Position numbers and translations under genes: made by a program
Part shown: positions 46,091 through 49,359 of the stretch, one piece after another
Layout of the letters: each line of letters starts with the position of its first letter
Numbering within the stretch: position 1 is the first letter of the stretch
The notes under the pieces: model-generated
What the model saw: only the letters and a program-made list of their open reading frames with translations
Databases searched by the model: none
Told to the model about the DNA's origin: nothing
Assembly: GCA_038245905.1 (NCBI GenBank)
Contig: JBBRRY010000002.1
Coordinates: 96,001 to 160,000, forward strand
DNA length: 64,000 bases
Source of the DNA: Thermoanaerobaculia bacterium
GTDB taxonomy: Bacteria; Acidobacteriota; Thermoanaerobaculia; UBA5066
Direction of reading: 5' to 3'

Positions 46091-46096
46091 TAGCAT
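46091..46096 (+). promoter_or_regulatory. -10 box of a probable leaderless transcript for the DUF2064-rSAM/ArsM-PiT operon
   Basis: TAGCAT 6 nt before GTG 46103; no SD. Confidence 0.5.
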
Positions 46097-46102
46097 TCAA
46101 CA

Positions 46103-46810
46103 GTGATCAACGTGAAGGCGTCCCGGTGCGTCGTTCTGTTCTCCAGGTCGTCCCAGAACGAAGGGGCCTTGAAAGGCATGCCCGGCCGCGGCCGGATCTT
46201 CGCGTTCTCCGCGTGTCGAGTGGCCGAGGCCGTACAGGCCCTAGGCGGGGTGGACCTGATTCTCGCAGGCGACGGACCGGCCCCGGAGGGAGCGCGTTTG
46301 CTGCCCCAGCGCGGTCGCGGGTTCGGCGAGCGCCTCAAGAACGTCTTCGAGGACGCGCGAGCGGCCGGCTACACGGAGATCATCACCGTTCCGGGGGACG
46401 TGCCGGGGATCTCCGCGACGCATCTCGACACCGCGTTCCGGGCGCTCGAGGCGCGCGATACCGTCCTCGGCCCGTCGGCCGACGGCGGAGTCTGGCTGAT
46501 CGGGCTTCGCGCCGGACCGACCGCTCTTTCGAATTTGTTCCAGAGAGTCCGATGGATGACCGCGAGTGTCTTTTCATCTCTCGTTCGGAACGCGCCCGAT
46601 GCGGCTCTTCTGGAAGTGCTTCTCGACGTCGATCGTCCATCCGACCTCGCGACCCTCGCGGCGGAGCAGGGTCTCGACCCGACTCTCGCCGCACTCCTCC
46701 GCTCGCTCCGGCCCGTCCCCGCCGCCCCCGAATGGGCCCGCCGGACGATTCCGCGCCGGCCCCGTCCCGTCGCTCCCTCCCGCGCGCCTCCTGCCCGGCT
46801 CGCCGCCTGA
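46103..46810 (+). CDS. Divergent DUF2064 / TIGR04282-like (CofC-related) protein with a C-terminal RAPP motif
   Basis: QRGRGFGERL, GDVP, VLGPSADGGVWLIGL, LDVDRPSDL; Pro/Arg-rich tail ending PSRAPPARLAA. Confidence 0.75.
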   Translation: MINVKASRCVVLFSRSSQNEGALKGMPGRGRIFAFSACRVAEAVQALGGVDLILAGDGPAPEGARLLPQRGRGFGERLKNVFEDARAAGYTEIITVPGDVPGISATHLDTAFRALEARDTVLGPSADGGVWLIGLRAGPTALSNLFQRVRWMTASVFSSLVRNAPDAALLEVLLDVDRPSDLATLAAEQGLDPTLAALLRSLRPVPAAPEWARRTIPRRPRPVAPSRAPPARLAA

Positions 46811-46860
46811 CGATTTTCCCCCCGCGGCCCGGACGACTCTCGAATTTCAGGAGGTTGGCG
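46781..46860 (+). promoter_or_regulatory. Anti-SD/SD pairing linking the RAPP codons to the RBS of the rSAM-ArsM gene
   Basis: GCCTCCTG (46786-46793) is complementary to CAGGAGGT (46848-46855), with one G:U pair. Confidence 0.55.
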
Positions 46861-49359
46861 ATGACCGTTCTCGCGGAGCGGACCCCGCTCCACATTCCCT
46901 CGCTTCACGCGTTCCAGGAAGACGACGTCTTCTACGCCGTCGATGCCGAGGCGCCAAACTGGATCGCCACCGACGCCCGCGGCAAGCAGATCCTGCACGA
47001 GATCCGGAGCGGGGAGGACGCCGGAACGCCGCTCGCGTTCGGCTCTCTCGTGGCGCGCTGGGCCGCCGAGCATCAGCTCGAGGCGGGAAAGGCCTGGGTG
47101 CACGTTCACGATTTCCTGTGTGCTCTCGACCGGGCGGGCCTCCTTGCCGACGCGCCGTTCGTCCGCGCCCCGTATCCCGGCCGCGCCGCGCTCATCAAGC
47201 CGGCCGGACTCCACGAGCTGTGGCTGCAGATCAACAACGCCTGCAACCTCACATGCACGCACTGTCTCGTTTCGTCGGGCCCGGGCGGGGCGCCCGGCAT
47301 CGACGCCGCGGCGCTCGTGCGGCTCGTCGACCGCGCGAAAGAGCTTGGTATGGAACGCCTTTACGTCACCGGGGGCGAGCCCTTCCTCCGGAAGGACATT
47401 TTCGATCTCGCGAAACGCGCCACCGAAACCCACGGTGCCGAGATGATCATCCTCACGAATGCCACAGTTTTTTCGGGTGCCGTGAAGAAGGGACTCGAGA
47501 CGCTGGACCGCACGAAGGTGAAGTTTCAGGTGTCGATCGACGGAGCCCGCCCCGAGACGAACGACTCGATCCGCGGCGCGGGCACGTTCGACCGGGCGCT
47601 CGAAGGCGCGAAGCTCCTTTCCGGACTAGGCTTCGACGTCTCGTTGACGACGGTGACGACCGAAGAGAACCTTTCCGAGCTCGTCGAAATCCCCGCTCTC
47701 GTCAAACGCGTCGGCGCGAAGAGCCAGCACCTCATGTGGAGCCACAGGCGCGGCCGCGCGATCGACAGCGGAAACGGCTTCTTCCCGGGACACCTCGCAC
47801 TCGTCGAGGCCGTCCTCGCCGTCGTGGACGCCGCCCGGCGCGAGGAGACGACGCTCGACAACCTCGAAGCGATCAAACGGCGAGTGAACGGCGTGCCGGG
47901 CGTCAAGTACGATCTCGGAAACGCGGGATGGGACTCGATCTGCGTTTATGCTGACGGAAAAGTCTATCCGACGGCGGCCCTCGCGAACGAGCCCGCGCTC
48001 GTCTGCGGCGACGTGACGCGGCAGGATCTCGGGGACATCCTCGAATCCTCGACTGTCGTTTCGACACTTCGCGCCGCGACTCTGGCCAAGAAGCCTTCCG
48101 TGAGCTCGGACCCGTTCCGCTTCTTCACCGGCGGCGGCGACCTCGAGCACGCGTGGTGCTTCTCCGGCGGGGACTTCCACGGCGCCGATCCGTATTACCC
48201 GATCTCGGTCGCCCTCACGAAGAGCGTCATGACGACGCTCGGGCGCGAGAAGAGTATGCGCCGCAACCTTCGCTCGGGCTACGACGCGCCCCTCGTTCTC
48301 CACGCGATGGGAGAGGGCGCGATCGCCTGCGGCACCGCCGACGGCGCGGCCGCCGAGGAGCCGGTCTTGACGCTCCACTCCAACTGCGTCCTCTCTTTCG
48401 ACGTCGACAAGCCGCGCGCCAGGATGCGGGAGTTCTACGGTGCCGCCGCCGAAACGCCGCAGGCCGAGCTGTGCTGCCCCACGAAGTACGACGACTCGGC
48501 CGTCTCCCACATTCCCAAGGACGTGATCGACCGCTTCTACGGCTGTGGCTCGCCCATGACGACCGCCGGGATCCGCGAAGGCGAAATCGTCGTCGATCTC
48601 GGCTCGGGCGCCGGCATCGACGTCTTCATCGCGGCGAAGTTCGTCGGGAAAGACGGCAAGGCGATCGGCGTCGACATGACCGACCGGATGCTCTCGGTCG
48701 CGCACGAGAACAAGCCCAAGGTGGCCGCCGCGCTCGGCTACGACGTCGTCGAGTTCCGCGAGGGATTTCTCGAAGCGATCCCGGTCGAGTCGAAGACGGT
48801 CGATCTCGTCACCTCGAACTGTGTCGTGAACCTGTCGCCCGACAAGCCCCGCGTCTTCGAGGAGATCTGGCGCGTGCTGAAGGACCACGGGCGCATCGTG
48901 ATCTCGGACATCGTCTCGGAACGGGACGTTCCGCCGCATCTCAAGACGAACCCGCAGCTCTGGGGCGAGTGCCTCGTGGGGGCGCTCACGCAGGAGGGGT
49001 TCCTCGCGGGCCTCGAGCGCGCCGGATTCTACGGCCTCGAGATTCTGAAAAAGAGCTACTGGAAGGACGTCGAGGGATACCCCTTCTTCTCCGTGACCGT
49101 GCGCGGCTTCAAGTTCGAAAAAACGGCCGGCTGCGTCTTCAAGGGCCATCGTGCCGTCTACCTCGGACCGGGCAAGGCCTTTGTCGACGAGGAGGGCCAC
49201 CAGTTTCCGCGCAACGAAGCTTACGAAGTCTGCACCGACACCGTCGCGAAGCTCTCGAGCGCGCCATACAAGGGCTTTTTCGCGATTCTCGAGCCGGGAG
49301 AGGAGCGGGCGGGCTACGCGTGCTGCGCGCCAGGCGCCGATGGCACGGTGTGCTGCTGA
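46861..49359 (+). CDS. Fusion: PqqD/RRE-like domain + radical SAM + arsenite methyltransferase (ArsM/AS3MT-like) + Cys-rich tail
   Basis: SD CAGGAGG then ATG 46861; [73 protein letters not shown]; ends ACC...CC. Confidence 0.8.

Follow-up and report, generated by a model that had tools for sequence, protein, structure and literature searches.

A conserved RxPP ending in a DUF2064-derived protein subfamily as a candidate translational arrest element upstream of a radical SAM/SPASM-ArsM gene

The stretch of DNA analysed here (the window; 64,000 nucleotides (nt), positions 96,001 to 160,000 of contig JBBRRY010000002.1, assembly GCA_038245905.1) belongs to a Thermoanaerobaculia bacterium whose genome has a G+C content of 67.8%. 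At 46103..46810 on the plus strand it carries an open reading frame (ORF) with a GTG start, encoding a protein of 235 amino acids (aa), here called P0001, whose named homologues come from metagenome-assembled genomes (MAGs) of Thermoanaerobaculia (Acidobacteriota). P0001 was assigned to DUF2064 (Pfam PF09837) with 83 bits against a cut-off of 25.8, the match covering residues 59-151 and beginning at profile position 29; DUF2064 and CofC were its only Pfam matches at E <= 0.01, and NCBIfam TIGR04282 gave 92.9 bits, which is under its cut-off of 134. The C-terminus reads ...PRPVAPSRAPPARLAA (...RPRPVAPSRAPPARLAA), i.e. ...SRAPPARLAA followed by the stop. The RAPP of this ending, residues 227-230, is encoded by CGC GCG CCT CCT at 46781..46792 (+) and represents the putative arrest core; the five-residue tail ARLAA and the stop codon TGA (46808-46810) take up 46793..46810 (+). 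The ATG of the next gene (46861) lies 50 nt after this stop, and its product, P0002 (46861..49359, +), is an 832-aa fusion of a radical SAM/SPASM protein and an ArsM-like methyltransferase. A preliminary description made from the sequence alone had placed the ORF, the RAPP motif, the stop codon, the Shine-Dalgarno sequence (SD) and the next ATG exactly where they are found, and its assignment of the two products to DUF2064 and to a radical SAM-ArsM protein is borne out by the Pfam score of P0001 and by the radical SAM, SPASM, and ArsM-type domains of P0002.

Structure prediction divides P0001 into a domain and an extension. In the AlphaFold2 model, which has a mean predicted local distance difference test score (pLDDT) of 88.9, residues 7-202 (46121..46708, +) form a confident alpha/beta fold of the nucleotide-diphospho-sugar-transferase-like type, with 10-residue blocks between 11 and 200 averaging 88-98. 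The Pro/Arg-rich linker of residues 203-226 (46709..46780, +), free in sequence and kept in length among homologues, is predicted to be disordered with block means of 57-68, and the whole tail from 203 to 235 is of low confidence. Among solved structures, the DUF2064 protein 3cgx comes closest (Foldseek E 4.6e-14, TM-score 0.70; profile comparison with the Protein Data Bank (PDB), E 2.1e-23), followed by CofC/FbiD guanylyltransferases. With the canonical DUF2064/TIGR04282 proteins, annotated as ‘arsenosugar biosynthesis glycosyltransferase’ and including 3cgx, P0001 shares the fold and the core motifs QxGxxLGxR, GxDxP, and GPxxDGGYxLIG, most of the shared ones being kept by the domain (QxGxxFGER, GDVP, LGPSxDGG), as well as its context, since canonical members occur in arsenic-related clusters with ArsS and ArsM. 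However, canonical proteins carry P..G.VKTRL and end directly after the helix equivalent to residues 193-202 of P0001, whereas the P0001 subfamily, scoring under the TIGR04282 cut-off, does neither. In the alignment, RCVLLFARSP..E...KGL stands subfamily-wide in place of the canonical N-terminal motif, P0001 itself having RCVVLFSRSSQNEGALKGM at the site of canonical ..FA+.P..G.VKTRL, in agreement with the earlier statement that this motif is missing, and the chain runs about 35 residues beyond the canonical end, bearing RxPP. As judged from alignment and model, no hydrophobic leader is present in the subfamily, the N-terminus of P0001 being a beta-strand (residues 8-13) with pLDDT > 90, and no metal site was found in P0001, where Cys9 is the sole near-invariant Cys in the alignment.

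The RxPP ending is shared by nearly the whole subfamily. A family profile search of 1.84 billion cluster representatives (50%-identity clusters) gave 366 matches at E <= 1e-30, and among the best 150 of these 366, which were examined, 138 revealed [RKH]x[PS]P within the last 20 residues, while nine of the 12 without the motif are fragments ending within the domain. The cores of the 138 split into RGPP (70), RAPP (45), KAPP (7), RPPP (6), RSPP (5), KGSP (3), and HAPP (2). The homologue search with P0001 itself yielded 148 proteins, of which 120 were listed and inspected: R[AGP]PP lies in the last 20 residues of 98 of these 120, including 96 of the 97 at E <= 1e-27, and the 22 lacking it are P0098 and distant canonical DUF2064 proteins. 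In addition, 92 non-redundant genomic loci were sorted by a feature independent of the tail, namely the canonical N-terminal K[TS]R[LM]. The C-terminal motif was present in none of the 33 canonical loci and in 53 of the 59 non-canonical ones, one of the 53, L091 (RRPP), being doubtful. Of the six non-canonical exceptions, L064 is cut by a contig end, L021 and L022 are read-through artefacts of ORF extension, and L072, L092, and L100 are canonical-like proteins missed by the pattern. The same division is seen within the host genome, whose two canonical DUF2064 paralogues, on contigs C14 (about 6.4-7.0 kb) and C78 (about 0.9-2.0 kb), carry VKTRL or SKTRL and no RxPP tail. The C78 paralogue is extended by a C-terminal domain of Nudix-like appearance, as judged by eye. 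An in-frame TGA of the C14 paralogue was considered as a selenocysteine lead and rejected, the TGA being its true stop.

Within the extension, conservation is confined to the core. Positions 0, 2, and 3 are near-invariant in the 138 representatives, while no residue at positions -24 to -1 occurs in more than 34 of them and the residues after PP are unconserved, leaving a tail of 1-13 residues (median 5). In Acidobacteriota, Bacteroidota, and a Myxococcota-type MAG alike, nothing in the C-terminal extension but RxPP is conserved. The position of RxPP is kept as well: 40-55 residues (median 52) separate its Arg from the invariant Asp177 in the 53 loci, across phyla, and the gap from the stop of the P0001-type gene to the next gene on the same strand is 28-75 nt in most loci. 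The codons, on the other hand, vary freely among loci for Arg (CGC, CGT, CGG, CGA), for the second position (GCG, GCC, GCA, GCT, GGC, GGA, GGG), and for Pro (CCT, CCC, CCG, CCA), and low-GC Bacteroidota members retain RGPP or [KR]GSP with quite different codons. This synonymous variation means that selection acts mainly on the peptide. Judging from these comparisons, the RAPP ending of P0001 is clearly not a product of chance and appears as a conserved feature of the family; the terminal RAPP, on whose conservation the preliminary description had been prepared to fall, and the linker length, which it had proposed to compare, are both plainly kept. Two groups deviate in the core. N[KR]GSP replaces RxPP at the same distance from the domain in five loci of Flavobacteriaceae and Maribacter MAGs (L076, L078, L081, L094, L108) and in the representatives P0243, P0254, and P0265, and seven representatives form a clade with ‘QKAPP’; such tails may be either weaker pauses or put to another use.

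A second, weaker signal points to a constraint at the RNA level besides that on the peptide. As the preliminary description had remarked, CCT is unusual for Pro in this organism, accounting for 7.4% of Pro codons, with CCT-CCT making up 1.9% of Pro-Pro pairs in 1468 long host ORFs with high G+C at third codon positions (GC3). Of 45 high-GC loci, 23 use CCT as the first Pro codon of the motif, compared with a host baseline of 18.7% for first codons of Pro-Pro pairs (binomial p ~1e-6, a value which is overstated because the loci are related and no phylogeny correction was applied). In the window, the minimum free energy (MFE) fold of 46770-46870 contains the helix that had been claimed, in which the anti-SD arm GCCUCCUG over the Ala-Pro-Pro codons (46786..46793, +) is paired with CAGGAGGU (DNA CAGGAGGT; 46848..46855, +), the SD of the downstream gene, whose AGGAGGT stands 5 nt before the ATG at 46861. 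CCTGA at 46806-46810 and TCAGG at 46847-46851, named as a further possible pair, are both present. According to the partition function, SD and motif codons are paired with a probability of 0.91 in the window, compared with a mean of 0.02 for 100 synonymous recodings, none of which reaches the observed value. L002, L003, L007, and L010 behave like the window with 0.69-0.90 (0.69-0.91 when L001 is included), against 0.02-0.07 for synonymous recodings, and L004, L006, L008, and L009 are intermediate. Over the whole footprint of a stalled ribosome, pairing of the SD reaches P >= 0.5 in 15 of 32 loci, and 13 of the 32 beat at least 95% of their recodings. In the porin clade, the anti-SD CUCUCCCUCCUC is found in the tail codons directly 3' of RPPP, within a CU-rich run CTCTCCCTCCTC. 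The statement that the motif codons serve as anti-SD thus holds for the window and its close relatives, but not family-wide; in the models, the arrangement is real in the window, lineage-specific, and of modest predicted strength.

The downstream gene shows on what such an element would act in the window. P0002 comprises a radical SAM domain (residues 124-277), a SPASM domain (355-404), and an ArsM-type methyltransferase domain (572-710 according to Pfam, 532-733 according to NCBIfam), and its NCBIfam matches are all under their curated cut-offs, the best being PRK11873 with 234 against 263 bits, and arsinothricin ArsM having 202 against 500. The protein ends in a Cys-rich tail. Its stop overlaps the ATG of a gene for a PHO4/PiT-family phosphate (arsenate?) transporter at 49359..50453 (+; Pfam PHO4 E 9.5e-62, GC3 frame signal) in the sequence TGATG, so that the transporter gene probably belongs to the same operon, and the transporter may import arsenate or phosphate for the pathway. 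Convergent on the end of this operon, an ORF at 50505-51590 (-) has two DinB_2 / mycothiol-S-transferase-like stretches. Upstream of the DUF2064-type gene, the 447 nt at 45656-46102 display only a weak coding signal, and two minus-strand ORFs there (45604-46038 and 45666-45989) are without a Pfam match. A promoter scan of 45500-50700 revealed no promoter-like site, nor any sigma-70-like promoter in 45656-46102, and a terminator scan of the same region gave one terminator-like site inside an ORF start, which is fewer than in shuffled sequences.

In other clades, the P0001-type gene precedes other genes. The radical SAM/SPASM-ArsM fusion follows in 17 of 54 non-redundant loci, the window included, as recognized by the N-terminal start of P0002 that is conserved in these 17. 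Pfam places a Porin_O_P gene downstream in L046, ahead of an SBP_bac_6 binding protein plus an ABC permease, and a porin also in L050 and L062; SBP_bac_6 follows directly in L014 and L017, TonB-dependent receptors in L076, L078, and L098, ArsS-like radical SAM proteins with DUF3641 in L093 and L102, CMD/AhpD-like proteins in L081 and L030, and flavoprotein oxidoreductases in L047 and L057. Many of these loci also have an ArsM-like or radical SAM gene no more than a few kb away. As far as domain content tells, the common theme of the loci is organoarsenical or phosphate-like metabolism and uptake, with no single fixed partner protein.

RAPP/RGPP arrest peptides preceding diverse genes are already known. 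The main text of Fujiwara et al. (EMBO J 2025, PMC12992588) describes RAPP and RGPP as the most context-tolerant arrest cores, refractory to EF-P, strongly avoided in proteomes and enriched near the C-termini of proteins of < 300 aa that precede diverse genes, among them those for TonB-dependent receptors, copper proteins, and proteins of the DsbA or thioredoxin type. Arrest in vitro is reported there for seven Streptomyces lividans proteins as well as for CruR, six of the seven having a signal peptide or a transmembrane segment, and the discussion section proposes a two-module architecture in which the core is kept and the N-terminal stretch next to it varies. With these peptides and with ApdA and ApdP, as described in the parts of the sources compared (PMC12992588; Morici et al. 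2024, PMC10951233), P0001 shares a core a few residues before the stop, a variable N-terminal neighbourhood, a same-strand gene after a short spacer, a length of < 300 aa, and a motif that is otherwise depleted from the proteome. However, the known members are, according to the same sources, mostly small secreted or membrane proteins, thought to be released via translocation or extracytoplasmic metal binding, whereas P0001 has a cytoplasmic nucleotidyltransferase-like fold of about 200 residues, with no signal peptide or transmembrane segment seen. This enzyme fold in the place of the proposed sensor part is what is new here, and no paper describing it was found. The main text of PMC12992588 mentions no radical SAM, arsenic, methyltransferase, or glycosyltransferase; literature searches on DUF2064 and TIGR04282 gave no description of the subfamily tail among the papers listed, judged by title and abstract, and the work found on arsenosugar together with ArsS, radical SAM, and ArsM concerns ArsL/arsinothricin.

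Leaders with a sensory protein part are represented by CutF-cutO of Rhodobacter capsulatus and CruR-bfrG of Bordetella pertussis, both described as DUF2946 leaders in the portions of the sources used here (bioRxiv 10.1101/2025.02.05.636593; PMC9426467). Following these descriptions, they have in common with P0001 a sensor protein, a C-terminal Pro-rich stall site (sensor and stall site both putative in P0001), and a target gene for handling a toxic element, and in CutF a stem-loop masks the next gene's ribosome-binding site until it is melted by the stalled ribosome. They differ in having a Sec signal peptide, a Cys/His metal site, and periplasmic sensing, while P0001 is cytoplasmic; no sequence relationship to DUF2946 (PF11162-type) was found among the Pfam matches of P0001, and the anti-SD of the window lies within the putative stall codons rather than in an intergenic stem-loop as reported for CutF. 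SecM-secA of E. coli, as far as it is treated in the sources, resembles P0001 in an Arg-Ala-x-Pro type core whose stall exposes a downstream SD and in release by a pulling force, both of these effects being proposals for P0001; its core is RAGP, however, it is exported, and Sec translocation supplies the force, which in P0001 would come from the folding of a cytoplasmic domain. From its sequence, P0001 would be filed as a protein working like a RAPP/RGPP arrest peptide and, by fold, as a diverged DUF2064 protein, but not as a member of the DUF2946 or SecM families.

The same host genome offers a further candidate outside the window. On contig C5 at 124132-124485, an ORF of 117 aa with a signal-peptide-like N-terminus ends in ...ARGPPLLLS, and about 80 nt downstream, behind a GGAGGAGA site, lies a gene for an exported protein, judged by its signal-like start. 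The tail codons CTTCTCCTTTCT (CTT CTC CTT TCT) are complementary to this GGAGGAGA SD, an arrangement resembling the classical small exported RGPP leader, and this candidate suggests a more general use of RxPP leaders by the organism.

Taking these features together, we consider it probable, with ample room for doubt, that RxPP functions in arresting or pausing translation and so controls the downstream gene, and a switch of the next gene operated by stalling is made probable by the fact that nearly all family members keep the ending. The regulatory nascent-chain arrest module would consist of a cytoplasmic domain derived from DUF2064 (about 200 residues), a linker (about 25 residues), the RAPP core and a five-residue tail. 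On it the ribosome would pause while Pro229 occupies the P site and Pro230 the A site, a placement made by analogy with the toeprint of CruR. The paused ribosome would cover GCCUCCUG and thereby free the SD of the radical SAM/SPASM-ArsM gene 56 nt downstream, so that a long stall would favour initiation on this gene and, via the TGATG overlap, also on the gene of the PiT transporter. More speculatively, the stall would end when the domain completes its folding, perhaps aided by a metabolite, and pulls on the chain, so that the domain would serve as a sensor during translation. Relief of the stall by folding that depends on a ligand or partner, as the preliminary description had suggested, is plausible from the model geometry.

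Several points weigh against this reading. We infer the stalling from the motif, and an RAPP-like core alone is insufficient according to the main text of PMC12992588, requiring a supportive N-terminal neighbour and varying in strength with the ribosome species; in this subfamily, the neighbouring residues are unconserved, and the host ribosomes are those of Acidobacteriota. KGSP, carried by some Bacteroidota, is no described arrest core, nor is QKAPP. In the crude host proteome (2796 ORFs), RAPP was counted 26 times where 42 were expected and RGPP 14 times where 29.3 were, the control AAPP being found 93 times against 62.3, so that RAPP, with a ratio of 0.62, is only mildly depleted. At the RNA level, the overall stability of the 101-nt fold is unremarkable (z = 0.07; 100 of 200 shuffled sequences were equally or more stable), although its MFE contains the expected helix. 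Between the SD and the motif codons, pairing is near zero in L005, L011, and L012, which belong to the radical SAM-ArsM group, as well as in the more distant loci tested (L018, L023, L024, L029, L052). Blocking the footprint of the stalled ribosome lowers the predicted probability that the SD is paired only from 0.82 to 0.66 in the window and from 0.85 to 0.75 as a mean over 32 loci, with a drop of at least 0.3 in just two of the 32; a same-size block placed 45 nt further upstream as a control had no such effect in any locus, and in these folds the SD of GC-rich leaders readily gains other partners in silico. Finally, no SD was detectable in the Bacteroidota members, and any output mechanism there must therefore differ.

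The release step can be formulated further. In the model geometry, the last helix (residues 193-202) lies 27 residues from Pro229 in the P site, i.e. roughly at the exit of the tunnel, and force profiles (Goldman 2015, Nilsson 2015) reportedly place such a distance in the range where a domain, on folding, exerts a pull on an arrested chain. A cytoplasmic enzyme-fold domain, diverged from DUF2064 and without its former NTP-loop motif, might have been turned into a co-translational metabolite sensor, in effect a protein-based riboswitch: its fold would be completed only with a pathway metabolite bound, and docking of the last helix would then pull the 27-residue linker and release a RAPP/RGPP arrest that is stable otherwise. 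Candidates for the metabolite are an arsenical, a phosphate or arsenate ester, and a product derived from S-adenosylmethionine. We regard this sensor proposal as tentative and clearly less probable than arrest or pausing as such.

A simpler possibility is a constitutive pause without sensing, by which RxPP would couple the translation of the two genes, or set their ratio via an open SD, or hold the finished domain on the mRNA for co-translational assembly with the downstream product. The conserved motif, spacing, and short intergenic gap would suit it, as would the anti-SD that 15 of 32 loci have beneath the pause site; moreover, the P0001 domain revealed neither a ligand site nor a sensing residue, and since this domain keeps QxGxxFGER, GDVP, and LGPSxDGG, that is, most DUF2064 core motifs, it may be a working enzyme partner. 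However, the downstream gene changes from clade to clade (radical SAM-ArsM, porin, binding protein, TonB-dependent receptor, ArsS-like, CMD), which disfavours one fixed protein partner, and the kept linker length sets the last helix at the tunnel exit, which would be needless for simple coupling. In addition, RAPP and RGPP are reported in the main text of PMC12992588 as strong, EF-P-refractory arrests and not as mild pauses. We therefore rate a pause without sensing as rather unlikely.

A regulatory arrest also has to be weighed against a role of RxPP and its tail in the mature protein, whether as a docking peptide, a degradation tag, or a peptide substrate of the radical SAM/SPASM enzyme next to it. 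Radical SAM enzymes of the SPASM type frequently modify a peptide whose gene lies immediately upstream, as that of P0001 does, and ARLAA resembles an ssrA-type LAA end, with LAA closing 14 and AA 29 of the 138 representatives. These ends are not conserved in the family, nor are the residues after PP in general, and the motif is equally conserved before genes for a porin, a binding protein, or a TonB-dependent receptor, where no SPASM enzyme follows. A PqqD/RRE-like domain was not found in the unannotated stretches of P0002 (about 1-120, 410-533, 734-832) even at E <= 5, residues 1-120 being the N-terminal part ahead of the radical SAM domain. The observed cores RAPP, RGPP, RPPP, RSPP, and HAPP largely match the list of arrest-competent and depleted motifs in the main text of PMC12992588, which a docking motif would not explain, and a mature-protein function is therefore improbable. 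A programmed frameshift at Pro-Pro, fusing the DUF2064 protein to the downstream enzyme, can practically be dismissed, as the downstream frame, although open at 46126-49359 (1077 aa), is a high-GC artefact of the kind expected at 68% G+C, the two genes stand in any of the three relative frames (offset 0, 1, or 2) even in close orthologues (L001: 2, L003: 0, L004: 1), and loci such as L012, L052, and L015 have in-frame stops between motif and start. The probability left by these four readings, the arrest or pause switch and its three rivals, stays unexplained.

For the understanding of arrest peptides, the subfamily would provide a concrete answer to a question asked in the main text of PMC12992588, namely what supplies the pulling force for arrest peptides outside protein localization: here the force would come from a soluble domain that folds some 27 residues away from the peptidyl-transferase centre. 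With 366 cluster representatives at E <= 1e-30, the family is a large one, and annotations such as ‘TIGR04282 glycosyltransferase’ or ‘CofC-like’ are suggested to include a non-canonical regulatory subfamily. It would also give a first regulatory handle on the poorly understood arsenosugar/organoarsenical clusters with DUF2064, ArsS, ArsM, and the uncharacterised radical SAM/SPASM-ArsM fusion. If the sensor proposal is true, a metabolite-sensing domain would set the translation of organoarsenical enzymes and of uptake systems, including porin, ABC transporter, TonB-dependent receptor, and PiT, in at least three phyla.

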